Below, in pieces: positions 1,511 through 61,373 of a DNA stretch of 61,373 nucleotides (its first letter is position 1; every line of letters begins with the position of its first letter). The notes under the pieces were generated by a model that was given only the letters and a program-made list of their open reading frames with translations, was not told where the DNA came from and searched no databases. The translations under genes and the position numbers were made by a program. The stretch is from a virus. The stretch lies in the UHGV virus genome UHGV-1597594; one strand, 5' to 3'.

Positions 1511-3001
1511 TTATGCCTTTTTAGATTTGCGCTTTGCAGCAACTACGACTTCTGCTACGATAGCTTCTACAGTAGCTTCAGTTACAACAGACTTGTCTGC
1601 AACTTTTACAAGAGCTGCATGCAACTTGTAGTTGCCGACTTTGCTGAAAGTGCACATGAATTCTGTTGTTGCGTTGTATTCTGCAGGCACTGCAAAACCG
1701 CTGTCAGGACCCCATACACCAGTGTCTTCAAATGTCCAAGACTGTCCTTGTGAATCTGTTGCAGTAAATGTCGCATGACCATCTTCAGGCGCTTCTACGA
1801 TTTCATACTGCAGCTGAACGCCATCAACGCCAGCCTTGCCAACTACTTCAGTTGCAAGCGTTGCATTGATTGCTACTTCTGTTGCAGGCTGAATGCTTGC
1901 AGGGACATCTACAGAAATCTTGTATTCTGATACTTCAGGCTGAACTGGCTCAGCAACAACTACTGTAGACTCTGCTTCAACAACTACGCTGTCATCAGCA
2001 ACCTTGGCAAGAACTGCATGCAATTTGTACGTGCCAGCCTTGCTAAAGATTACAGTGAACTTTGTAGTTGCATTGTATTCTGCAGGAATGTCAAAGCCTG
2101 TTGCCGGCCCCCAAGTGCCATTGTCGACAAATGTATATTCCTTGCCAGCAGCGTCAGTAGCCTTGAATGTCACATGACCATCTTCAGGTGCTACGTCCAC
2201 GCCATAACGGAACTGAACCTTGTCAACGCCGACGTCGCCAACAGTCTTTGTTTTGAATGTCGCGTCAAGTTCAACTTCAGTGTTTTCGATGATTGTTTCA
2301 GGTGCAGACATTTCGAACTCATACTCAGACACTGTTTGTGCAGCTTGTTCAAGTTTGATGTTCTTTGTCTTGTTTGAAATCATAGTTTCACGACCAGCCT
2401 GGCTAACGTAGCCCTCTTTAGACACTTCCCAAACAATTTCTTCGCCTGACAAAACAGTCAACGAATTGCGAACTTCACCATTCATCTTGACAACTGCATC
2501 TGCAGGTTCTACATTGATTGTCAGTGTAGCTTTGCTGAGCTCAACAAGCTCCACTACTTGAATGACATCATGGTTTGTGAGCGTGATTGTGCCCTCCTGA
2601 GATTCATAACCCTCTTTCGACACTTCCCACTTAATTGGAATGCCTGCAGGCACGTTCTCAAGCATCTTTGTAGCCTCACCATTGATTTCTACGTAAGCAT
2701 CTTCAGGCACAGGCTGAATTGTGATGCTGAACTTATCTTTACCAGGTTCAGGGTCTGGTCCTGGTCCTGGGTCATCACCAGTAATTGCAGGGATAATTGT
2801 CTTTTCGATGACTTTCTGAGCTTCTGCAGTTGTGCCATAGAATTTGAGAGTTTTCTTGGCTTCTTCTACAGACATTTTCTCAAGATTGTCTGCAAGATAT
2901 GTCAGACCAGTGACTGCAGCAATTTTCTGCCGCATTTCTGGGCTAATGACTACACCAGTAGATTTGACCACTGGAGCAGCTTGTTTTTGCTTCTTTGCCA
3001 T
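1511..3001 (-). CDS. repeat-domain protein (Ig-like/PEGA-like repeats), possible virion surface or decoration protein
   Basis: ATG at 3001 (MAKKQKQ). Contains a Pro/Gly/Asp linker (GDDPGPGPDPEPG), two short repeats each containing WEVSKEGY, and two ~105-aa internally duplicated domains (..VAPEDGHVTFKATD..PAEYNATTKF.. / ..EAPEDGHATFTATD..PAEYNATTEF..). Function inferred from architecture only. Confidence 0.6.
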   Translation of the reverse strand: MAKKQKQAAPVVKSTGVVISPEMRQKIAAVTGLTYLADNLEKMSVEEAKKTLKFYGTTAEAQKVIEKTIIPAITGDDPGPGPDPEPGKDKFSITIQPVPEDAYVEINGEATKMLENVPAGIPIKWEVSKEGYESQEGTITLTNHDVIQVVELVELSKATLTINVEPADAVVKMNGEVRNSLTVLSGEEIVWEVSKEGYVSQAGRETMISNKTKNIKLEQAAQTVSEYEFEMSAPETIIENTEVELDATFKTKTVGDVGVDKVQFRYGVDVAPEDGHVTFKATDAAGKEYTFVDNGTWGPATGFDIPAEYNATTKFTVIFSKAGTYKLHAVLAKVADDSVVVEAESTVVVAEPVQPEVSEYKISVDVPASIQPATEVAINATLATEVVGKAGVDGVQLQYEIVEAPEDGHATFTATDSQGQSWTFEDTGVWGPDSGFAVPAEYNATTEFMCTFSKVGNYKLHAALVKVADKSVVTEATVEAIVAEVVVAAKRKSKKA

Positions 3002-3144: not shown

Positions 3145-4437
3145 CTACAACAATGACGGCACTCGTTGAGTTTCAAGTGGGTCACTGACATTGATGCCTG
3201 TGTATGCAACAAGTCGTTGTATTGGGCCAAGTACGAGTTTTTCGAACATGAGTCGTTTGTTCATTGGCGGCACATCTGGCATGTACTTCGGTGTCGGCAT
3301 TTCGCCTGGTGCAAAGCCAAATGCATCGCAATATTGACGAGAGCCAATTGGGATATTTGACAAATCTGACTTTGCTCTGTCAACAAAGTAGTAGAATACT
3401 CTACCGCCTTCAATCAATGGATATCGTGTTTCCAATCCATGAGCTTTTACAAGTGCATTATGGTATGCACAAGCCCTGTACTGAGGCAGTACACCTTTTG
3501 CTAACTGCCATTCACCGTCATAGCTTAGCACATAGTCATGATACTTGTTTGCATTGACATATGCGCAAAGTTTTTCCAAGTCTTGCTCAGCTTCAAAGCG
3601 TTTCCATAATTTCTGTATAAGCTTTGGATATGTCGCAGAAGTCAATTCGCCTCTGAACATTTTCTTAAATGCATAGTCAAGCATTTGTCTAACAAGCATT
3701 GATGAGCCTGTTTGAATAAGTTCGATGCCTTTGCCTTGAATGTGCTCAGTAGGGTCTTCGAATACTCGACCATCTACATATATTTGAGCCTTTAAGTACT
3801 TTTTCTTTTGGGCAAATAATGCAGTGTCAGAAATCGTTTCGAGGTCAAATAGCAAAATTGAATTGCCATGACGTTTTGCGAGGTATGCTGCATATGCCCC
3901 ATTGAATAATTCTTCCATACGATATTTGAATATCGCAAGAATCAAGTCATACCAATTTTTGCCTATGTAGCCAATTGATTTGACAGTTGGCTCAAAGTGA
4001 ATGTACAAAGAGTCTGTGTCAATATACAACACCTTGTCTTCATAGGGTTCGTGCTTTGGCGATACAGACAAATCAAAATTGTCCTTCAATTTGGGGTCAT
4101 TGCGCAGTTTTTCATGCAATTCATAATCACACCACCACTTGTTGTTAAGATAGTCATTTGCTACTCGTTCGCCAAAGTGAATGAAGTTACGCCCTTCAGC
4201 AGTAATTGATTCTGCAACTGCCATGTTAAAGAAGTGATAGAATCGATTACTTGTTGCACCATAGATTGAGTTTCGACAACATTTTGCTGAGACTTGCAGT
4301 CCTGCATGTTTTAGTGATTCTTGCATTGCAAAATCTCTCAATTCAAATAGACGTTCAGTAGACAACTGACTCAAATCACCAGTCAAATCTACCCCATCTA
4401 TTTCAATTTTTGACATATCTATCTGAGCTTCTGCCAT
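3145..4437 (-). CDS. family B DNA polymerase, C-terminal fragment (motifs B and C, KKKY motif)
   Basis: ATG at 4437. Translation contains KCCRNSIYG (motif B, KxxxNSxYG), YIDTDSLYI (motif C, YxDTDS) and QKKKYLK (KKRY-type motif). It lacks the exonuclease motifs and motif A, which are in CDS 7798-9303. Confidence 0.85.
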   Translation of the reverse strand: MAEAQIDMSKIEIDGVDLTGDLSQLSTERLFELRDFAMQESLKHAGLQVSAKCCRNSIYGATSNRFYHFFNMAVAESITAEGRNFIHFGERVANDYLNNKWWCDYELHEKLRNDPKLKDNFDLSVSPKHEPYEDKVLYIDTDSLYIHFEPTVKSIGYIGKNWYDLILAIFKYRMEELFNGAYAAYLAKRHGNSILLFDLETISDTALFAQKKKYLKAQIYVDGRVFEDPTEHIQGKGIELIQTGSSMLVRQMLDYAFKKMFRGELTSATYPKLIQKLWKRFEAEQDLEKLCAYVNANKYHDYVLSYDGEWQLAKGVLPQYRACAYHNALVKAHGLETRYPLIEGGRVFYYFVDRAKSDLSNIPIGSRQYCDAFGFAPGEMPTPKYMPDVPPMNKRLMFEKLVLGPIQRLVAYTGINVSDPLETQRVPSLL

Positions 4438-4459: not shown

Positions 4460-4617
4460 AAATTGTACTACATACATTGCAATTTTGCAATATGGGTTGT
4501 TAAAATGCACACATTGTACTACATGCAAAATGCTTTTGCATCATTTTGATACAACATGCAAAAACGAATTTGTACCGTTTTGATACAATGAATGCCAAGT
4601 TAAACTTTTGCATGACC
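4460..4617 (-). promoter_or_regulatory. cluster of 3-4 tandem promoter-like motifs upstream of the polymerase C-fragment gene
   Basis: aaattgtactacatacattgcaattttgcaa, acattgtactacatgcaaaatgcttttgcatc, ttttgatacaacatgca and ttttgatacaatgaatgcc...ttttgcat all resemble the recurrent tattgtacaaca-N12-ttgcac motif. Confidence 0.4.
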
Positions 4618-5562
4618 ACAGTCAAATACAGGATAAAATTGCCGTTGTATCATAGTATCTGCGTCAAAATTCTCATCAATGAGATGTTTATGCGTACGCC
4701 AATTATGCCAGTGTTTTTGAATTGTCTGCAAGTTATTTGATTTTTGCGGATTCAATGCAAAGTCTGTTGATAATACAGGTTCATTGTTCAAATGCGCTTG
4801 TATTGCTGCAATAACTGCTTCAACAGACATCCACTCAAATGCAGTCACACAAATAAAACCTGCACGCAATGCATCTTGAGTTTTGTAAAAGTGATATGTT
4901 GGATGAGTTGCTGCGCATTTTGATGCATTTTTGACAAGTGCATCAAAGCTTTTTGCGCTGTTATGCGACACTGTTGGATTGATTTCTACTACGACATTGT
5001 CATATCGCAAATCATACAACTTTAAGTCTATTCTGTAGTCATATTCAAAATTTATGCCAAGACGTTCAAATAGCAATGCATGCCAACGTTCATTAAGTTT
5101 TGACTGTATTTGACCAGATGCTGCTCTGCATTTTGCATGCATGCAAAAATACGGCACATCATATCGCTCTTCACATGTTTGACGCAACTTAGCAATGTTT
5201 GCAGGACCAAGCTTGCCAAAATGCTTAAGCTTAGTTGCATTTGCTTTGTCAGTATTGCTTGGACCTGCTTTGCCAAAATGTTCAAGCTTTGTCGCATTCG
5301 CTTTGTCAGTATTGCCTGGTCCAAGCTTGCCAAAATGTTTAAGCTTAGTCTGCTTGCATTGCTCTGTTACATGTGATAATTGCATATTGTGTTCTACACC
5401 ATATTTTCGTAACATTGCAATTCGCCTAATGTATTTTCTACGAATTTTGCTATGTGATGTCTTTCTTGACGCATATCTCACATATGGCGTACTTGCAATC
5501 AATGCATCTCGCTCGTTTTCAAGTTTAGCAATACGAGCATCAATCTCTTCTTTTGTCATCAT
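4600..5562 (-). CDS. homing-endonuclease-like protein (N-terminal coiled coil, 19-aa tandem repeats, PD-(D/E)xK/Vsr-like C-terminal region); paralog of 53489-54610
   Basis: ATG at 5562. Three repeats of TKL(K/E)HFGK(L/A)GPxNTDKANA; the C-terminal region YDLRYDNVVVEINPTVSHNS resembles the D..hhhE(I)xxxxxH core of Vsr/DUF559-type nucleases. Sits inside the split polymerase gene. Nuclease call is inference. Confidence 0.55.
   Translation of the reverse strand: MMTKEEIDARIAKLENERDALIASTPYVRYASRKTSHSKIRRKYIRRIAMLRKYGVEHNMQLSHVTEQCKQTKLKHFGKLGPGNTDKANATKLEHFGKAGPSNTDKANATKLKHFGKLGPANIAKLRQTCEERYDVPYFCMHAKCRAASGQIQSKLNERWHALLFERLGINFEYDYRIDLKLYDLRYDNVVVEINPTVSHNSAKSFDALVKNASKCAATHPTYHFYKTQDALRAGFICVTAFEWMSVEAVIAAIQAHLNNEPVLSTDFALNPQKSNNLQTIQKHWHNWRTHKHLIDENFDADTMIQRQFYPVFDCGHAKV
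5200..5360. repeat. ~57-bp tandem repeat (about 2.6 copies) inside CDS 4600-5562
   Basis: ccaagcttgccaaaatg(c/t)ttaagcttagt...tttgtcagtattgc(t/c)tgg recurs with a ~57-bp period; it encodes the 19-aa protein repeats. Confidence 0.8.
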
Positions 5563-5645
5563 AGCAATTCAAAAAATGCAGCAGCAGAACATCTGCTGCT
5601 GCATCGGCAGGTATCTTCACTTTTGTTTGAGTTGATTGCGATGTT

Positions 5646-6473
5646 TTAGAATGGCAGTTCACCATCGTCACCTGCGGCGTCAAATTCAGCTGCAATGTCA
5701 TATACCAGCGTCATTGCGATTCGCAAATCACGCTTCTTAGACTTCAGGCGCATGATATCATGACCAGAATTGTTTGTGATGACTGAACATTCAAACTCTT
5801 CATTGCCATCAATAAATGACAGCATTGATTTGTGAATTGTGATTGGCGACAAATCAGATGGGTAATTTGCGTCAATCACATATTCAAAGTTGTTGTTCTT
5901 GGCAATTAGTCCTCGTTCAGTCGTGCGAATCTCAATGCCAGGCAGCTCCTTGTCACCAGTGTTCAATGAGCCATACGATGACATGATGCCAAAGTGATTT
6001 GACGTCAAATCGAGCTTTCTCAGATTTGTTGTGCTATCAAACAACATTGACATATCATTATCAGACAGCTCAAAGTAGCCAAGTGATGGCATTGAACAAA
6101 CCTGATTGATTTTGAGCTGATTGTTTGAGATTACAATGAGCTCTGCAATTGTATCTGTGCCAATTTGTTTAACATAGATTTCAATCATTGCAGATGAGCC
6201 AAATGCAGCAAGTACTCGATTGTTGAATTGCGTGCCATTGTAAATAAACGCCTTGACTGTGACATCTTTGAGTGTAGACTCATAATGTTCACAAATGTCA
6301 AGCACATTAAGTGTCTGCGACTTTACAAAGCTACTATTGCCAGCATCAGTTCTGATTCGCTGGTCATTGAGTGAAAAGCTAAGCTTGCCATCGCATTTTA
6401 ATGATGATGCAAACAATGCTCGCAGCATATCAATGTTTGCATTGCGTAACGTAATTTTGTTCAGATTTTCCAT
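5646..6473 (-). CDS. hypothetical protein with acidic C-terminal tip DDGELPF (possible SSB-like or SSB-tip mimic)
   Basis: 275-aa ORF ending ..AAEFDAAGDDGELPF; the tip resembles the conserved bacterial SSB C-terminal D-D-D-I-P-F tip. No OB-fold could be verified by eye. Confidence 0.55.
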   Translation of the reverse strand: MENLNKITLRNANIDMLRALFASSLKCDGKLSFSLNDQRIRTDAGNSSFVKSQTLNVLDICEHYESTLKDVTVKAFIYNGTQFNNRVLAAFGSSAMIEIYVKQIGTDTIAELIVISNNQLKINQVCSMPSLGYFELSDNDMSMLFDSTTNLRKLDLTSNHFGIMSSYGSLNTGDKELPGIEIRTTERGLIAKNNNFEYVIDANYPSDLSPITIHKSMLSFIDGNEEFECSVITNNSGHDIMRLKSKKRDLRIAMTLVYDIAAEFDAAGDDGELPF

Positions 6474-7783: not shown

Positions 7784-7797
7784 TTATTGTTATGGTG

Positions 7798-9303
7798 TTA
7801 CAATTTGATTGCGCCTCTACGAGCAAGCTCTTCTTCAATCAATCGAACATGATTGTTAGCATACCAAAATTGCAATTTTTTGTGATAATTGCGAACGTTG
7901 CCAAGCTGTTCTTGAGTTTCTTTATACATTGAAGGCTCTCTGTTGTCATACAGACAATTGTTGACTGACACAAAGTAATTTGGGTCTGCTTTGTAATGCT
8001 CGATTTCATCAGGATTTGTTAAACGTCTAATAAAGTTGTCTGGTGAAATATTCGCCGAGCGCATACTTGACGGATACAACGAGTTTGCATCAACACAGAC
8101 AACCATACGAGCCCAATGGTTAAATGGTTGCTTAACAAAGCCGCCCTCAAATGAATGTACAACGTTCTCCGGCCCACCTTGAGCACATACAACTTTACCG
8201 CCATATTTGTTGTACAAATATGTCATCATGACGCCCTCAGATTGCTTAACTGGTCCTTGACAGTGATTCATGTCAATATTTGTCATATTTGACAATGACA
8301 TCACATTTGATATCAAGTCAGTTTTTGCAGCAATCATCGCATTGACCATCGTATCGACAGCATTATATGCAATGAATGTGCATGGATGATACAAATACAG
8401 CTCTTTAAGTGTGCAATCATAGGGTAGCTTACCTACACCAAACATGCGATGTGCAATATAGTCAAGTCGCAATGACTCTTTTTGCCACACTGAATAGTCG
8501 TATGTGTCCATGAGCTGCATGTAGTCATCAATGTACTTGTGGTATGGCATACCATTGCCCCAGACAGTTCTGCCAACTGGAGATGCCAATGCCAAATCAA
8601 TATTGTGCATTGCGCATCGATTTTTGACATAGATGTTATCGAAGCCATTGATGTTCCAGCCTGTCAATGCAGGAATGTTTTTGAAGAGCTTAGTCACCCA
8701 AAAATGCAACAATTCATGCTCATTTGCATGTTGAAAGATTTTGACAGTTGGATGTTCTTTCAAATACGCAGCAAAGCAATGTTGACCCATGTACTCTTGA
8801 ATGATGCCATTGACAAACTCAAATGCATCATCCAATGTTGGGTTTTGTTTGCCGCAGCTTTTGCGCAAATCATCATCATTCAACAAGTCAACAGTAGTCT
8901 GAATGACACAATTGCATTGTTCATCGCATGTACTTATTGCGTTGATAGGCATTTCAGCTTTGTCAGGCTTTGGAAAGCCATTGCCAATTTCAGTCTCAAT
9001 ATCGTAAAAGTACAACTTTGGTCTACGATAAGCAAACAATTCAGCTTTGTCAGCTTCAGGCAATTCAAATAAGAATTGCAGCAAGTCAAATTGATTGAAT
9101 CGTTTTGCTGTGACTCGAGTCACTGGCAATTTACGCCAATCTTGAATATCTGCATATTGAGGCTCTACGTGGTCTGATATTTGCCATACTGGAAATTGAT
9201 AAGGCTGTTCACAGACTGGGTATGTTTTGATGTCAATGCCACCTTGCTCATTAACATATGAGACTTCAATGCCATGTGACAAATATGCTACGTCAACAAT
9301 CAT
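7798..9303 (-). CDS. family B DNA polymerase, N-terminal fragment (3'-5' exonuclease domain + polymerase motif A)
   Basis: ATG at 9303. FYDIETE (Exo I), WNINGFD (Exo II), YNAVDTM (Exo III), VCVDANSLYPSS (motif A, DxxSLYPS). The ORF ends about 95 aa after motif A, without motifs B or C. Confidence 0.85.
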   Translation of the reverse strand: MIVDVAYLSHGIEVSYVNEQGGIDIKTYPVCEQPYQFPVWQISDHVEPQYADIQDWRKLPVTRVTAKRFNQFDLLQFLFELPEADKAELFAYRRPKLYFYDIETEIGNGFPKPDKAEMPINAISTCDEQCNCVIQTTVDLLNDDDLRKSCGKQNPTLDDAFEFVNGIIQEYMGQHCFAAYLKEHPTVKIFQHANEHELLHFWVTKLFKNIPALTGWNINGFDNIYVKNRCAMHNIDLALASPVGRTVWGNGMPYHKYIDDYMQLMDTYDYSVWQKESLRLDYIAHRMFGVGKLPYDCTLKELYLYHPCTFIAYNAVDTMVNAMIAAKTDLISNVMSLSNMTNIDMNHCQGPVKQSEGVMMTYLYNKYGGKVVCAQGGPENVVHSFEGGFVKQPFNHWARMVVCVDANSLYPSSMRSANISPDNFIRRLTNPDEIEHYKADPNYFVSVNNCLYDNREPSMYKETQEQLGNVRNYHKKLQFWYANNHVRLIEEELARRGAIKL

Positions 9304-52125: not shown

Positions 52126-52142
52126 GACATGACTTGTTAAAT

Positions 52143-52181
52143 GAAAAAGAGGCTCAGACAAACAATGTCTGTCTGAGCCTC
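52143..52181 (-). terminator. intrinsic terminator downstream of CDS 52207-53337
   Basis: Perfect 12-bp stem gaggctcagaca/tgtctgagcctc with 9-nt loop; A-run 52143-52148 gives a T-run on the minus transcript. Confidence 0.65.
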
Positions 52182-52206
52182 GAGCATCTTTGATGTGCTT
52201 GTACTA

Positions 52207-53337
52207 CTACTTGAGCCCGTTGATGAATGCTTCAGTTTCAGCATCCATCGTTGCTGCTGCAGGTGCTGCTGCCGGAGCTGCTGCAGGTGCAGGCTCTGCT
52301 GCAGGCGCTGAAGCTGCTGCAAACGGGTCAATGGCTGTCTGAGCTGCTGGTGCAGTAGCAGGCGCAGCTGCCTGAGCTGTTGCAGGTGCAGGCTGAGTAG
52401 TCTGTGCCTGCTGAGCTGCTGACGGATTGATGACAATGTCAGGCCAGATATCCGACGCATCCTTGTAGTTAGCAAGGCGCATCTTAACCTGACGCTTAAT
52501 GTCATCAGAAGCTTCATGGTAACCCCACTCCTTTTCGACATTCGGGTACTCCTTGAGCATGTCGACAATCTGCTGCATGATTTGCTGCTTGTATGCAGGG
52601 TCAGTGTCATACTTCGCCTGATCAACAAGGGTGCCATCTGCAAGCAGCATCGACGATACGTTGGGCGAAATCGTCGAAGTCTCGTAGTCACGCATTTCAA
52701 CGCCATTGACGTCTTTCAGCGTAATCTTCAAGAGAATGTCGTGGCCCTTAACGGGATGGAACATGTCCATAGGCTGAGCGCCCATCTGGATGTCTTCGTC
52801 GGTTGGCTTCATTGCAGACATGCAACGCTTGTAGATGGCTGCAGGGAGTCGATATGGAAGTACTTTCCCAACGTTCTCAGTGTGCACTGAATCAGCTTTG
52901 ATTTGAACGAGGCAAGTGTACTGACTCTGCATACTGAACTCTCGCTTTGCAAGCGCTTCCTGCTGAGCATCCTTGGTATTGATGAGTTCCCAGTAGAATG
53001 CTGAAATGGGACACCATCCATAGGGTTTCATCAAATTTTCCGGATTTTCAGGATGCGGATTCGGTGAGCTCGGCGAATTGTAGCGGAAGCCCTGATTAGC
53101 GCCAGTCCCAAACCAGTAGTAACGGACGATTGAAATCGGCACCGCGGGGTCATTCAAGTTCGGCAGAATTCGAATGACTGCTCGATAGATTCGGTCCTTA
53201 CTTTCGGAAGGCTTAGGATTAAAAAACTCAGGTCCTGCAGAACGTTCCGGCTTAGCAAAGCTTGCTACATTGTCCGGCTGGACATCAAAGATTGACAGCG
53301 GCTGATTACCGGTCTGTCCATTTTCAATTTGTGACAT
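52207..53337 (-). CDS. hypothetical protein with Ala/Pro-rich low-complexity C-terminal region
   Basis: ATG at 53337. C-terminal ~70 aa are (A/P/T/Q)-rich (..PAPATAQAAAPATAPAAQ..APAAAPAAAPAAA..). Confidence 0.6.
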   Translation of the reverse strand: MSQIENGQTGNQPLSIFDVQPDNVASFAKPERSAGPEFFNPKPSESKDRIYRAVIRILPNLNDPAVPISIVRYYWFGTGANQGFRYNSPSSPNPHPENPENLMKPYGWCPISAFYWELINTKDAQQEALAKREFSMQSQYTCLVQIKADSVHTENVGKVLPYRLPAAIYKRCMSAMKPTDEDIQMGAQPMDMFHPVKGHDILLKITLKDVNGVEMRDYETSTISPNVSSMLLADGTLVDQAKYDTDPAYKQQIMQQIVDMLKEYPNVEKEWGYHEASDDIKRQVKMRLANYKDASDIWPDIVINPSAAQQAQTTQPAPATAQAAAPATAPAAQTAIDPFAAASAPAAEPAPAAAPAAAPAAATMDAETEAFINGLK

Positions 53338-53488: not shown

Positions 53489-54610
53489 TTATCTTGCATG
53501 ACCGCAATCGTACACTGCAACATAACCAGCATCAATCATCTCTTGCTCATCTTGTCCGCAGTCTTCAATATGCTCTTTTGTCTTCAAATGACACCAGTGT
53601 TTGCGAATTGTTGACATGTCATCTGACAACTGTGGATTGAGTGCGAAGTCTGTTGAGTTTATTGATAGCTTTGCTAAATGCATGCCAACAATTGACACAA
53701 CGTCGTTTAAGTTATACCAGTCAAAAATTGTTATGCATATGTAGCCATGTTTGAGAGCAAGTTGAGTCTTATCAAAATGATAATGCATATGCATTGGCAC
53801 ATTATTATGTGTTCTATTATTTAGATATGCAAAACTGTACGTGCTATTGTGCGATATTGTTGGGCTAATTTCTATAACTATGTCATTATATCGCAAATCA
53901 TACAATCTGCCACCTATTAAATGCGAATATTCAAAGTTAATGCCAAGAGCATGTAATATCTTATCATGCACAAATAACTCAAGCTTTGAACATGGCTTTG
54001 ACTTTGAGCGCACGCTAAAATGGCATACAGCGCCATACAAGTCTGCTAAACGTTCACGAATCAAAGTCAAATTGCCAAACGCGTTGCCCCATCGTGCACG
54101 TTTAGTTTTACACATTTTAGCAACATTGCCATTTGCATAACCATAACGTTCTAAATTTGTTGCACAGATTTTTGAGCGGTCACCCCATGCATTGCCATAT
54201 TTACGTTTTTTGGTATCAATTGCCTTTGCTTTGTTGCCATAGCCATTGCCAAATCGCTGTACTTTAGTTGCAGTAATTTTTTCTACATTGCCATTTGCGT
54301 GGCCATAACGTTTTAAGTTTGTTGCTTGCATTTTTGCAATCATTGCATCAACGTCATTATTTGCACGTCTGGTATTGATTGCTTGATTTTTTAGCGCAGT
54401 GCATTTCATCGCATTTTCAAACCCATACTTTCTTAAGCACCCAATTTTGTAGTTGTACTTTCGTGCAATTTCACTATGAGCTGTCTTATGTTTGCCTAAT
54501 CTAACATTCTCTGTTGCCCTTAACAATTCATCTCTTTCAGCTTCAAGTTCTGCAATTCTTTTCTCAATAGCTGCGCCAGTTAATGGCGTATCTTGCTTGT
54601 AGCGACTCAT
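53489..54610 (-). CDS. homing-endonuclease-like protein, paralog of 4600-5562
   Basis: ATG at 54610. N-terminal coiled coil (IEKRIAELEAERDELL), five ~18-aa repeats (ATNLKRYGHANGNVEKI and variants), C-terminal YDLRYNDIVIEISPTISHNS...FALNPQ...KHW...YDCGHA shared with CDS 4600-5562. Confidence 0.6.
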   Translation of the reverse strand: MSRYKQDTPLTGAAIEKRIAELEAERDELLRATENVRLGKHKTAHSEIARKYNYKIGCLRKYGFENAMKCTALKNQAINTRRANNDVDAMIAKMQATNLKRYGHANGNVEKITATKVQRFGNGYGNKAKAIDTKKRKYGNAWGDRSKICATNLERYGYANGNVAKMCKTKRARWGNAFGNLTLIRERLADLYGAVCHFSVRSKSKPCSKLELFVHDKILHALGINFEYSHLIGGRLYDLRYNDIVIEISPTISHNSTYSFAYLNNRTHNNVPMHMHYHFDKTQLALKHGYICITIFDWYNLNDVVSIVGMHLAKLSINSTDFALNPQLSDDMSTIRKHWCHLKTKEHIEDCGQDEQEMIDAGYVAVYDCGHAR

Positions 54611-59389: not shown

Positions 59390-59463
59390 CTCTTCGTGAC
59401 ACTATTATTAGCGGTACTATCAACAAAGCAGATGGTTCACTACTTGAAGCTGCATATGCAACT

Positions 59464-60117
59464 ATGCAAGAAGTCGAATGCTATGATGCTGACACTGGTG
59501 AATTCTTAGCAGGCTCACCTATCACAGTGCAGCCAAATGGCATGCCAACATATAAGTTGACAATTCCTGCAAACAGGCTTGGTGCAGGTGCATTGTCAAT
59601 TTGTTCAGTGTATCTTGATAATGTCAGTGTAAATGACTGTCTACGTTATGGCACTGGCTCCACTTTATATTGCTATGCAGGTCAAGGTGAGACGCTTGAT
59701 AATGTCAATTTGACATGTGGTGATACACTTGCATGCTTACCCTGGATTCACGAAATTCATAGAGGCGATTCAGAGACAAATGAACAACGCATAGCAATTG
59801 TGCTTGATGGCATTGAACATTTTTGCACTGATGAAGACATTCAGCTACTTGCATCGACATTGTCACACCCATTAGAATCATTTGGAGATGACAAAGTGTT
59901 TGCAGGCAAGCCTACGTACTATGACAATTGCTTTGCTGAATGGCTAATGCTCAATGATTTTCAAGCAGGCAACATGGTCGATACGTCTGTCACTGACTGC
60001 ATTTTGCTTATTGCAAATGACCCAGTAGTTGGCAATGACATCTTGATTACTCTTGAGCACATCACATCAGCGTTCAACTTCAATATGTATGACATGACAA
60101 ACTGGAATATGCTGTAA
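59464..60117 (+). CDS. hypothetical protein; full-length form probably starts at ATG 59339 in the +1 frame across the G7 tract
   Basis: ORF-track ORF starts at an internal Met; reading from ATG 59339 with one extra G in the tract gives a stop-free, in-frame extension (MKTTQLWFERQQSIAGGALRDTIISGTINKADGSLLEAAYAT-MQEVE...). Confidence 0.6.
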   Translation: MQEVECYDADTGEFLAGSPITVQPNGMPTYKLTIPANRLGAGALSICSVYLDNVSVNDCLRYGTGSTLYCYAGQGETLDNVNLTCGDTLACLPWIHEIHRGDSETNEQRIAIVLDGIEHFCTDEDIQLLASTLSHPLESFGDDKVFAGKPTYYDNCFAEWLMLNDFQAGNMVDTSVTDCILLIANDPVVGNDILITLEHITSAFNFNMYDMTNWNML

Positions 60118-60130
60118 TGAACTGCAAATG

Positions 60131-60166
60131 CACAAAAAGACTCAGCAATATTGCTGAGTCTTTTTG
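60131..60166. terminator. bidirectional intrinsic terminator
   Basis: aaaaagactcagcaatattgctgagtcttttt: 11-bp perfect stem, 2-nt loop, flanking A5 and T5. Confidence 0.75.
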
Positions 60167-60237
60167 TGTGCACTGTGACGCGCTTAATTGATACAGTCTA
60201 AGTGTAACATAGTCTGAAATGTTTACAAATTTACTTA

Positions 60238-60702
60238 TCAAATACCAATGTATATTGCGTATTCTGATGTTTTGATATCATCAGCGTCAAATTCAATTTC
60301 ACCATAGTTTTCATCACCTTGTGTTGCTATGATATGTGTAGCAAGCTTAACTTCATCATAGTACAAATCATAGAACACTTGCGTGCCTTTGTAAATTGTG
60401 ATAGCTGTGTTATTATCATACAACACTGGCGTCACTGTTTTAACAGGACCAACTTCTTGTGGCAAGGCCCTATCAAGAAATGTCAGTCTAATTGGTGTAG
60501 TGTACCGAGTATAAATATGCACGGTGAACTGCTTTAACAGCTTTCTTTGTTGGAGGGCTTGTTGTGCCCCCCCCCCAGTTACGAGGGATTTGCATATGAA
60601 TTGAGTTTTTGAAGTGAGTTGAGTTTTGATGCAAGATGCAAAACAACTAAGATGTTGTTTTGATATGTACATATGGGCAGTCAAAATATATAAAACAAAC
60701 AA
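60238..60702 (-). CDS. hypothetical protein with G10 tract near the 5' end; N-terminal boundary unreliable
   Basis: GGG codons (VTGGGAQQ) are the 10-nt homopolymer at 60567-60576; the 42 aa upstream look non-protein-like; an ATG (atgcaaatccctcgtaactgg) just upstream of the tract is out of frame by one. Confidence 0.4.
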   Translation of the reverse strand: MFVLYILTAHMYISKQHLSCFASCIKTQLTSKTQFICKSLVTGGGAQQALQQRKLLKQFTVHIYTRYTTPIRLTFLDRALPQEVGPVKTVTPVLYDNNTAITIYKGTQVFYDLYYDEVKLATHIIATQGDENYGEIEFDADDIKTSEYAIYIGI

Positions 60703-60760
60703 TTTAATAATTTGAAAAACTCATAAGCTTTATGACATTCAAATTGAACTGGGGGGGGGG
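60567..60760. repeat. 14-bp inverted repeat with homopolymers (C10-agtt ... aact-G10) flanking a ~170-bp AT-rich segment
   Basis: ccccccccccagtt at 60567-60580 and aactgggggggggg at 60747-60760 are exact reverse complements. Confidence 0.85.
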
Positions 60761-60869
60761 TCACATATCTGGCTCAATCTCTTGTTGTAACGTAGGTGAC
60801 ATTGCATTCGATGAAAAGTTTGCAGTGTTGCTTTCATGTCACATTGCATAACTTAAAACATCGAAACAT

Positions 60870-61277
60870 ATGGCAGTTCAAACACGTTCGGTACTCAAGA
60901 CATATTTTGAAACCGGAGATAAACCCACCTCAGCACAATTTGGCGACCTCATTGATAGTGCGTTGATGGCGAAAGCAACGCTTGAATCTGCGTCATTTAA
61001 TGCAGTCGCAAACACAGTGCATAATATAACGACATCGTCAGCAATAACATGCACATTGTCAAACTTAACATATGGCGAATCATGTGTTATTAATCGAGTA
61101 GGCAATGCGACAGTTTGCAATGCGACAACAACATTTGCATTCAATAATGGGCCATTGTACTATGCAGCGGGCTACTCAGATGTATCAGCAGATGCTACGG
61201 GTGCAATGTCATATGCAATTCTTATTGCAGGTAACACAACTCGTTGGGTGTTAATCAATCGCGCTTTCTACAAATAG
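60870..61277 (+). CDS. hypothetical protein (N-terminus MAVQTR shared with the next gene)
   Basis: ATG at 60870; 135 aa. Confidence 0.55.
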   Translation: MAVQTRSVLKTYFETGDKPTSAQFGDLIDSALMAKATLESASFNAVANTVHNITTSSAITCTLSNLTYGESCVINRVGNATVCNATTTFAFNNGPLYYAAGYSDVSADATGAMSYAILIAGNTTRWVLINRAFYK

Positions 61278-61354
61278 CAGACATACTTGAATGAAATTGT
61301 TCGAGCTTGTCTGCAATACAAATAACAGACAAACTTCAAACAATTTCTCATACT

Positions 61355-61373
61355 ATGGCTGTACAAACAAGAA
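61355..61373 (+). CDS. partial CDS, 5' end only; begins MAVQTR like CDS 60870-61277
   Basis: atggctgtacaaacaaga at 61355 encodes MAVQTR; truncated by the window end. Confidence 0.35.

Follow-up and report, generated by a model that had tools for sequence, protein, structure and literature searches.

Vsr-like homing endonucleases of the 'EDxHD' family include I-Bth0305I and the Hef-type enzymes (Taylor et al. 2011; PMC3239194). Hef-like genes reside in T4-related and other large phages, as Hef in phage U5, Hef34 in Campylobacter phage NCTC12673, and F-LimIII, VII, VIII and X in Dickeya phage LIMEstone1. To our knowledge, there is almost no biochemistry on these enzymes. Free-standing homing endonuclease genes (HEGs) leave a known signature in the genomes of T4-related phages (PMC2988022, PMC3296691). 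Two genes, p1 and p2, have been analyzed here in the virus genome UHGV-1597594, a stretch of 61,373 nucleotides hereafter called the window. An original prediction, made from the letters of the window, had described them as dispersed copies of a selfish mobile endonuclease. We conclude that p1 and p2 are very probably free-standing Hef-like (Vsr-like, 'EDxHD'-related) HEGs. The family is already known and very large; the variant part is the reduced architecture of the two members found here.

The window is 100% identical to the human-gut metagenome scaffold ERZ28658723 scaffold_133, and the genes lie in a distant T4-like phage. The nearest sequence of the DNA polymerase PolB and a weak similarity to Lak phages suggest a host among the Bacteroidota.

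Two related genes in the window

The open reading frames (ORFs) of p1 and p2 are located far apart on the minus strand, and are arranged as follows (aa, amino acids; pLDDT, per-residue confidence of the structure models).

4600..5562, minus strand: p1, putative Hef-like homing endonuclease gene of site A, 320 aa
5401..5562, minus strand: p1 residues 1-54, clade-specific N-terminal module, made by a long helix (4-24), a beta-hairpin and a helix (36-54), pLDDT 92-98
5158..5400, minus strand: p1 residues 55-135, basic single-helix repeat array, degenerate DUF7487, one 23-aa and three 19-aa units
4777..5115, minus strand: p1 residues 150-262, predicted Vsr-like nuclease domain
4603..4776, minus strand: p1 residues 263-320, C-terminal beta module (FALNPQ...KHW...FDCGHA), remnant of a Mom/GNAT-like domain, pLDDT 92-94 at residues 281-310
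53489..54610, minus strand: p2, putative Hef-like homing endonuclease gene of site C, 373 aa, immediately upstream of a gp32-like gene, identical to P0001
54035..54424, minus strand: p2 residues 63-192, repeat array; from residue 109 on, the 18-aa unit is modelled as a 12-residue helix and a 6-residue loop
53663..54001, minus strand: p2 residues 204-316, predicted Vsr-like nuclease domain (S208, D238, E247, S249, P250, H254, H278, W298)

The two proteins can be aligned over the full length (37% identity, expectation value (E) 2e-70, BLASTP), and no third copy of the family was found in the window by tblastn. The kinship and the copy number proposed in the original prediction are thereby confirmed. 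The tandem repeats it reported are found as 19-aa units in p1 and 18-aa units in p2, and the C-terminal motifs it quoted, YDLRY, VEI(N/S)PTxSHNS, FALNPQ, KHW and (F/Y)DCGHA, are all there and conserved. Where the original prediction saw an N-terminal coiled coil, a long helix is featured by both structure models, at residues 4-24 in p1 and 12-32 in p2 (pLDDT above 90). A plus strand ORF (5195-5635) overlaps the repeat region of p1; it is taken for a by-product of the repeats.

Assignment to the Hef-like family

A profile made from the two proteins retrieved 42 relatives (hmmsearch). Distant relatives share an architecture in which zinc ribbons, often present at the N-terminus, are followed by 23-aa repeats, a nuclease and, at the C-terminus, a Mom-like (GNAT-type) domain whose last residues are ...IYDCGN. 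Their repeats, (K)xKxTNLE(K/R)YGVENxxQSxEV, score as DUF7487 (E 1e-35 to 1e-44), and their nuclease region is matched by the Pfam models Vsr, DUF559 and MTES_1575. One of them, P0022, matches 423 phage records, and 'Hef-like homing endonuclease', 'homing endonuclease', 'Hef34' and 'nuclease/acetyltransferase' are among the annotations. The family profile aligns to the nuclease domain of Hef34 from the Campylobacter phage (hhalign probability 97.9%, E 3.4e-13), and the database record of Hef34 describes this protein as similar to Hef of phage U5. Through this chain p1 and p2 are homologous to annotated or characterised Hef-type proteins. An exhaustive profile search at E up to 0.001 gathered 29,312 cluster representatives (50% identity); the 150 best-scoring ones mostly measure 500-780 aa. 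The superfamily is very large and, as judged from these sequences, p1 and p2 rank among its short members. In the phage database, the polymerase region had no match in a nucleotide search, and a protein search with p1 gave weak Lak-phage matches only.

AlphaFold2 models were built on a 28-sequence alignment, and have mean pLDDT values of 83.3 (p1) and 81.5 (p2). The top Foldseek match is for both 3R3P, the structure of I-Bth0305I, in the case of p2 with probability 1.00 and a target TM-score of 0.64. The best matches in a library of viral structures come from phages and giant viruses, and are called 'endonuclease-like', 'putative homing endonuclease' and 'DUF7487 domain-containing'. The models thus predict the Vsr-like variant of the PD-(D/E)xK fold. 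The resemblance to a Vsr/DUF559-like nuclease core, seen in the original prediction, is supported both by the modelled fold and by the profile chain to Hef34.

Candidate active site residues

In the 28 family sequences (p1 numbering) S154, D184, H224 and W244 are invariant and P196 and H200 near-invariant; E193 alternates with Asp, and N195 with Asp, Ser or His. The distant member P0042 aligns directly to the 3R3P sequence (E 4e-4), the strings LAIEFNGLYWH...NYHLNKT in the former and LAIEVNGVYWA...NKDKRK in the latter being paired. The sequence link to 3R3P appeared only via P0042, and is otherwise provided by fold comparison. Residue roles are those described for I-Bth0305I (PMC3239194), and we infer the correspondence of p1 to P0042 from the multiple alignment.

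I-Bth0305I D196, Vsr D51: p1 D184 (p2 D238), metal-binding Asp
I-Bth0305I N208, Vsr H64: p1 N195
I-Bth0305I H213, Vsr H69: p1 H200 (p2 H254), catalytic His
I-Bth0305I D222, Vsr D97: p1 H224 (p2 H278)

The metal-binding Asp and the catalytic His are found at the expected positions, and the spacing of five between Asn and His is that of N208 and H213 in I-Bth0305I. According to the alignment, p1 retains the essential Asp and the presumed general-base His; Asp184, Glu193, Asn195, His200 and His224 are the candidate active-site residues. In the helix preceding the core, the invariant S154 opens an S-x-x-N motif in most members; p1 features N157-E158 and p2 S-K-L-E at this place, as read from the alignment only.

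Filled and empty sites in related genomes

Relatives of the window were identified among ENA and Logan metagenome contigs, largely from gut metagenomes, one of which measures 181 kb. Two 175-kb IMG/VR genomes (L005 and L006) are ~95% identical to the window in nucleotides. Members of the family are either present or absent, or replaced by other alleles, at five intergenic sites, called A to E. Four are in the window, three of them around the two fragments (PolB-N and PolB-C) of a split PolB gene.

7798..9303, minus strand: PolB-N, exonuclease domain and motif A (DANSLYPS)
3145..4437, minus strand: PolB-C, motifs B (KCCRNSIYG) and C (YIDTDS)
4493..5572: site A, presence/absence segment of the p1 cassette (ORF and short flanks), absent from L005 and L006 (blastn and junction sequences)
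7784..7797: site B, empty in the window, just after the PolB-N stop, filled in L006
3127..3149: site E, empty in the window, just after the PolB-C stop, filled in strain L025
53855..54628: site C, allelic replacement segment, from alignment blocks with L007 and L008

The p1 gene fills site A in the window and, at the identical place, in the strains L021 and L025; the site is empty in L005 and L006. Site B, 8 nt past the PolB-N stop, hosts a 399-aa paralog in L006 only, and is empty in the window and L005. A 367-aa paralog (P0015) resides at site E in L025 only. Occupancy is therefore sporadic at A, B and E, each a precise intergenic site beside conserved genes, and C and D carry divergent alleles. 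At site C, next to the gp32-like gene (identified by Pfam PF08804), the N-terminal two-thirds of p2 cannot be aligned in nucleotides to the gene of L007 and L008, and the 3' third falls within blocks of ~94% identity; alleles of other strains measure 361 and 393 aa. Site D lies outside the window, beside the large terminase gene (TerL). A 424-aa paralog is found there in the 181-kb contig, and a 431-aa paralog in one IMG/VR genome. The two are 35% identical, and their flanks ~94% identical; a further strain carries a 479-aa allele.

The comparison of insertion sites with related phages, which the original prediction had called for, has thus revealed a cassette missing from two close relatives and variable sites elsewhere. 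Together with the Hef-type homology, filled and empty sites speak for the selfish mobile endonuclease it had envisaged. Sporadic occupancy, allele replacement, conserved replication and packaging genes as neighbours, and the presence of several copies make up the standard signature of free-standing HEGs.

Paralogs at sites B, C and D are 90-94% identical in the last 60 residues and 43-63% elsewhere. The genes and segment involved are:

L006 6488-7687
L007 6718-7884
L001 8001-9275
window 53489-53670

Nearly identical ends attached to diverged bodies point to recombination between paralogs. Some alleles (L007, P0010) end with tandemly duplicated '...DCGHA...' tails. Shared ends and duplicated tails resemble scars that recombination would leave at the 3' end of the genes. 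The ratio of nonsynonymous to synonymous substitution rates (dN/dS) of the site-A gene is 0.14-0.16 in three strains, and its synonymous divergence is about that of the neighbouring gene. Purifying selection acts on the site-A gene, which is thus maintained and functional.

Homing would account for these data in three steps. The basic single-helix repeat array and the N-terminal helical module would bind a long DNA target. The Vsr-like nuclease would cut the HEG-less allele near the insertion point during co-infection by two phages. When the cut genome is repaired by recombination with the HEG-carrying one, it would finally receive a copy of the cassette. If the enzyme homes, the target site may span the junction itself, and be disrupted by the insertion.

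Cassette borders and regulatory elements

The borders of the p1 cassette lie among elements resembling transcription signals.

5575..5605, minus strand: terminator-like hairpin of the upstream 275-aa gene, 14 pairs and a T-run
4513..4560, minus strand: 3' tail of the cassette, with a second copy of the promoter-like motif (...TTTTGCATGTAGTACAAT)
4462..4490, minus strand: resident TTGCAA-17-TACAAT element, promoter-like, lying 25 nt ahead of the PolB-C start, present in HEG-plus and HEG-minus genomes

The left border of the cassette is inside the T-run, and the p1 start codon is 13 nt past the hairpin stem. The gene has no promoter-like element of its own, and would be expressed by read-through. 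In the empty site A of L005 and L006, the terminator hairpin of the 275-aa gene directly abuts the promoter-like element of PolB-C. The site-B cassette of L006 ends, as the site-A cassette, in an extra copy of the promoter-like motif, and a 7-bp sequence, GCATTTT, flanks the site-A insert. The motif GTWGTACAAT is found in the window in 8 copies (0.41 expected), all on the coding strand and upstream of genes:

4462, 4513, 9334, 11427, 37490, 41285, 46969 and 59257, minus strand: GTWGTACAAT

Copies are ~25-30 nt upstream of both PolB fragments. The motif is probably a phage-specific promoter or operator. Short palindromes containing TTGCA often precede it.

Cassettes made by promoters and stem-loops (PeSL) are shuffled as modules in T4-type phages (PMC2839356, PMC4122927). 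The layout of the p1 cassette resembles them, which supports movement by recombination at regulatory repeats, either as a rival to homing or as its complement. As a rival, terminator hairpins and promoters would be the sites at which cassettes are shuffled, homing would not be promoted by the cassettes themselves, and the nuclease would have another role, for instance to degrade or exclude competitor or host DNA, or be mere cargo. The order of hairpin and promoter-like element at the empty site A, the extra motif copies ending the cassettes of sites A and B, the GCATTTT flanks, and the failure to find immunity-type substitutions in the flanks are all in keeping with it. We nevertheless consider this explanation unlikely. 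All five variable sites hold the same nuclease family rather than assorted ORFs, as expected if the nuclease drives its own spread, and the neighbours of the sites are highly conserved essential genes, a typical setting for free-standing HEGs (PMC2988022). Shuffling at regulatory repeats and homing are, moreover, not mutually exclusive.

The split DNA polymerase

The original prediction correctly placed p1 between the polymerase fragments, but p1 is not alone there. The gap holds five genes, p1 plus a 275-aa ORF, MazG, dUTPase and a 116-aa ORF. The PolB closest to that of the window in the phage collection is found in Chryseobacterium phage MA9V-2 (L009), and is split at the same point.

995-2482 and 5941-7218 of L009: PolB fragments of MA9V-2

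The fragments align end to end with those of the window, residues 1-499 to 1-492 for the N part (36% identity) and 21-429 to 21-425 for the C part (34% identity). The conservation of the breakpoint at this level of divergence indicates that the break is ancient. The cargo of the MA9V-2 gap is different, and includes a homolog of the 275-aa gene (E 2e-11) and a TnpB gene directly upstream of PolB-C.

That the p1 gene split PolB by its insertion is suggested by its position between the two fragments, and cases of genes split by the insertion of a HEG are known from T4-related phages (PMC2988022). We hold this to be extremely improbable, as p1 is contradicted as the cause by two genomes: L005, with no family member in the gap, features an identical split and also the four other genes, and MA9V-2 the same break with other cargo. 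The original split could still go back to an ancestral HEG, be it of this family or of a different one. Unrelated mobile nucleases, Hef-like in the window and TnpB in MA9V-2, have repeatedly settled in the PolB break.

No Rfam family, group I and II introns included, scored over threshold anywhere in the window, and no tRNAs were found. Since p1 and p2 each form a separate cistron, with a start and a stop codon of its own, location in an intron or an intein is excluded for both.

The 275-aa ORF (5646-6473, minus strand) has no Pfam match. Its homolog in the MA9V-2 gap (L009 3675-4619) is 19% identical (E 2e-11). The gene is under strong purifying selection (dN/dS 0.03-0.06), and may encode an accessory factor of replication linked to the split polymerase.

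Points against the assignment

Some observations weigh against reading p1 and p2 as active homing endonucleases. Direct searches of Pfam, NCBIfam, PHROGs and PDB sequences found no nuclease domain in the two proteins: Pfam gave weak DUF7487 matches only, NCBIfam nothing, PHROGs nothing significant, and the PDB search no nuclease, with either a single sequence or the family profile. The nuclease assignment therefore rests on structure predictions and on the profile chain. The repeat region of p1 is modelled at low confidence (pLDDT 52-64). In the active site, an invariant His, in a Y-H-x-x-K motif, stands in place of the final Asp of EDxHD, the first Glu (Vsr E25, I-Bth0305I E170) appears to be Asn in most of the clade, and the 'x' is Ser in p2. 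A gene is found at site C in every strain examined, and mobility at this site is deduced from allele mosaicism alone. In the coding flanks, no fixed substitutions were found that distinguish HEG-plus from HEG-minus genomes and could mark an immune target; the excess of substitutions that the first bins seem to show is an artefact of the alignment edge.

Taken together with the loss of the Mom-like domain core (see below), the incomplete EDxHD motif (apparently Asn for the first Glu, His for the last Asp, Ser for the 'x' in p2), the constant presence of a site-C gene and the purifying selection on the site-A gene would also fit domesticated or catalytically dead descendants of HEGs, which would only bind DNA, for instance to regulate the replication genes next to them. 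This seems to us very unlikely. Equivalents of the essential Asp51 and His69 of Vsr are kept in all paralogs and distant relatives, and the Asp-to-His change is common to the wider DUF7487/Hef-like group, Hef34 included. Neither presence/absence at the strain level (A, B, E) nor replacement by a 35%-identical allele (D) is expected for a domesticated regulator. Free-standing HEGs are our preferred interpretation.

A reduced architecture

In the clade closest to the window genes (P0001-P0015 and paralogs in related genomes) the ~140-residue core of the Mom/GNAT-like domain, marked by HLQG, GGxxKLF and SYxD, is missing. Only the last ~50 residues of the domain, KHW...H...MIxxG(Y/F)xxV(Y/F)DCG, are kept. 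The Pfam model Mom (PF25680) has no match on p1 and p2 even at E up to 1, and is found on P0037 and P0042. A C-terminal Mom/GNAT-like domain is accordingly lacking in p1 and p2, and a functional Mom-like DNA modification domain is ruled out. The domain carried by most family members is hence dispensable for persistence and apparent mobility. The search for DNA recognition is thereby narrowed to the DUF7487 repeats, which are uncharacterised.

The N-terminal helix/beta-hairpin/helix module (RIAELEQERDELL...) is conserved in the close clade only; distant relatives have Cys-rich zinc ribbons in its place. The module, recognizable as an RIKELE..RD..L..TP block, is tandemly duplicated in two paralogs, L011 4641-5933 (431 aa) and L025 4001-5104 (P0015).

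The repeat array

Repeats in p1 are three 19-aa units with consensus KANATKL(K/E)HFGK(L/A)GPxN(T/I)D. At the DNA level they correspond to a 57-bp unit present in 2.6 copies (5204-5350, 83% matches), and the duplication is recent enough to be visible in DNA. About six 18-aa units are found in p2, denoted by a [YFW]-G pair at 18-residue spacing; no tandem repeat was detectable in the DNA of p2, the units being too diverged. Pfam DUF7487 (PF24308) matches p1 with 29.4 bits (gathering score 27) and p2 with 17 bits, under threshold. Both arrays are of DUF7487 type, the unit being shortened to 18-19 aa from the canonical 23. Repeats of p2 are modelled as regular 12-residue helices and 6-residue loops (pLDDT 70-77). 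The net charge is +10 over residues 45-135 of p1 (91 residues) and +20 over residues 53-195 of p2 (143 residues); such strongly basic arrays are compatible with nucleic-acid binding, and are no proof of it. A relationship of the repeats to NUMOD3 was discarded, as it appeared in one weak Foldseek match (rank 29), and no Pfam NUMOD match supports it.

The single-helix DUF7487 repeats of 18-23 aa might form a modular DNA-reading array, in which number and sequence of the units would set the target, and swaps or duplications of units would change it. The idea is speculative, and we regard it as doubtful. It would fit the mosaic N-terminal two-thirds of paralogs whose last 60 residues are 90-94% identical at different sites, the recent duplication of the 57-bp unit in p1, and the size of the family, whose members number in the tens of thousands (29,312 cluster representatives). 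If it were true, the reduced, Mom-less clade would provide a minimal engineerable scaffold, with one helix per repeat and a Vsr-like cutter.

Other features of the window

The segment 45489-59408 is 99.99% identical to the 181-kb contig. The end of the window, 59408-61369, diverges from it (74% identity, or unalignable), and marks another strain-variable region. A head-fibre-like gene (1511-3001, minus strand; PF25641 in the annotation of the source contig) carries an internally duplicated stretch, at about 1596-1843 and 1995-2242, the two copies being ~70% identical in nucleotides. The gene for the gp32-like single-stranded DNA-binding protein (52207-53337, minus strand) encodes a long C-terminal tail of low complexity, rich in Ala, Pro and Gln. 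The tail raises the G+C content of the gene to 50.9%, vs 40.2% in the window, and creates a long spurious ORF (52137-52706) in another frame of the same strand.

Comparison with known systems

Hef-like HEGs share with p1 and p2 a homologous nuclease domain and the pattern D...E-x-N/D-(G/P)-x3-H...Y-H-x-x-K. Many of them also carry DUF7487-type repeats before the nuclease, as the window clade does. Both groups are free-standing, reside in intergenic regions beside conserved genes, and occur sporadically and in multiple copies per genome. The window clade differs in lacking the ~140-aa Mom/GNAT-like core, of which the last ~50 residues are left, in the repeat period (18-19 aa, not 23), in the helix/beta-hairpin/helix that replaces the zinc ribbons, and in size, 320-430 aa against the 500-780 aa of most of the 150 best-scoring representatives. 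Filled and empty sites in nearly identical gut phage genomes amount to a natural experiment, from which targets of Hef-like enzymes can be guessed and tested directly.

I-Bth0305I (PDB 3R3P), the 'EDxHD' prototype (PMC3239194), matches p1 in the catalytic Asp, in the position of the Asn, and in the His that follows the latter by five residues. Its gene sits in a group I intron of recA, and the protein carries NUMOD-type N-terminal motifs; the window genes are free-standing and carry DUF7487-type repeats. Its D222 is replaced by His in the window proteins, and the loop between the last two catalytic positions measures 24 residues here, 9 in I-Bth0305I. The Pfam models Vsr and DUF559/MTES_1575 do not detect p1 and p2. 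The role of the Vsr mismatch endonuclease is nicking in repair; the window genes are read as a selfish element.

The split gp43 (43A/43B) of T4-related Aeromonas phages is likewise a two-cistron PolB with a HEG between the fragments, and there, too, it is unclear whether the HEG was the cause (PMC2988022). The HEG is a GIY-YIG seg gene in Aeromonas phages, Hef-like in the window. The gap of the window holds four additional conserved genes, and three distinct insertion sites flank its fragments.

After Vsr-like nucleases, the next-best structural matches of the window proteins are RAP-domain, FASTK-type mitoribosomal proteins, over 140-250 residues. FASTK-type proteins likewise join helical repeats to a Vsr-like (RAP) domain, a parallel architecture. 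Were the repeats indeed a modular reader, the window proteins would be the DNA counterpart of the helical-repeat and RAP (Vsr-like) architecture of FASTK-type organellar proteins.

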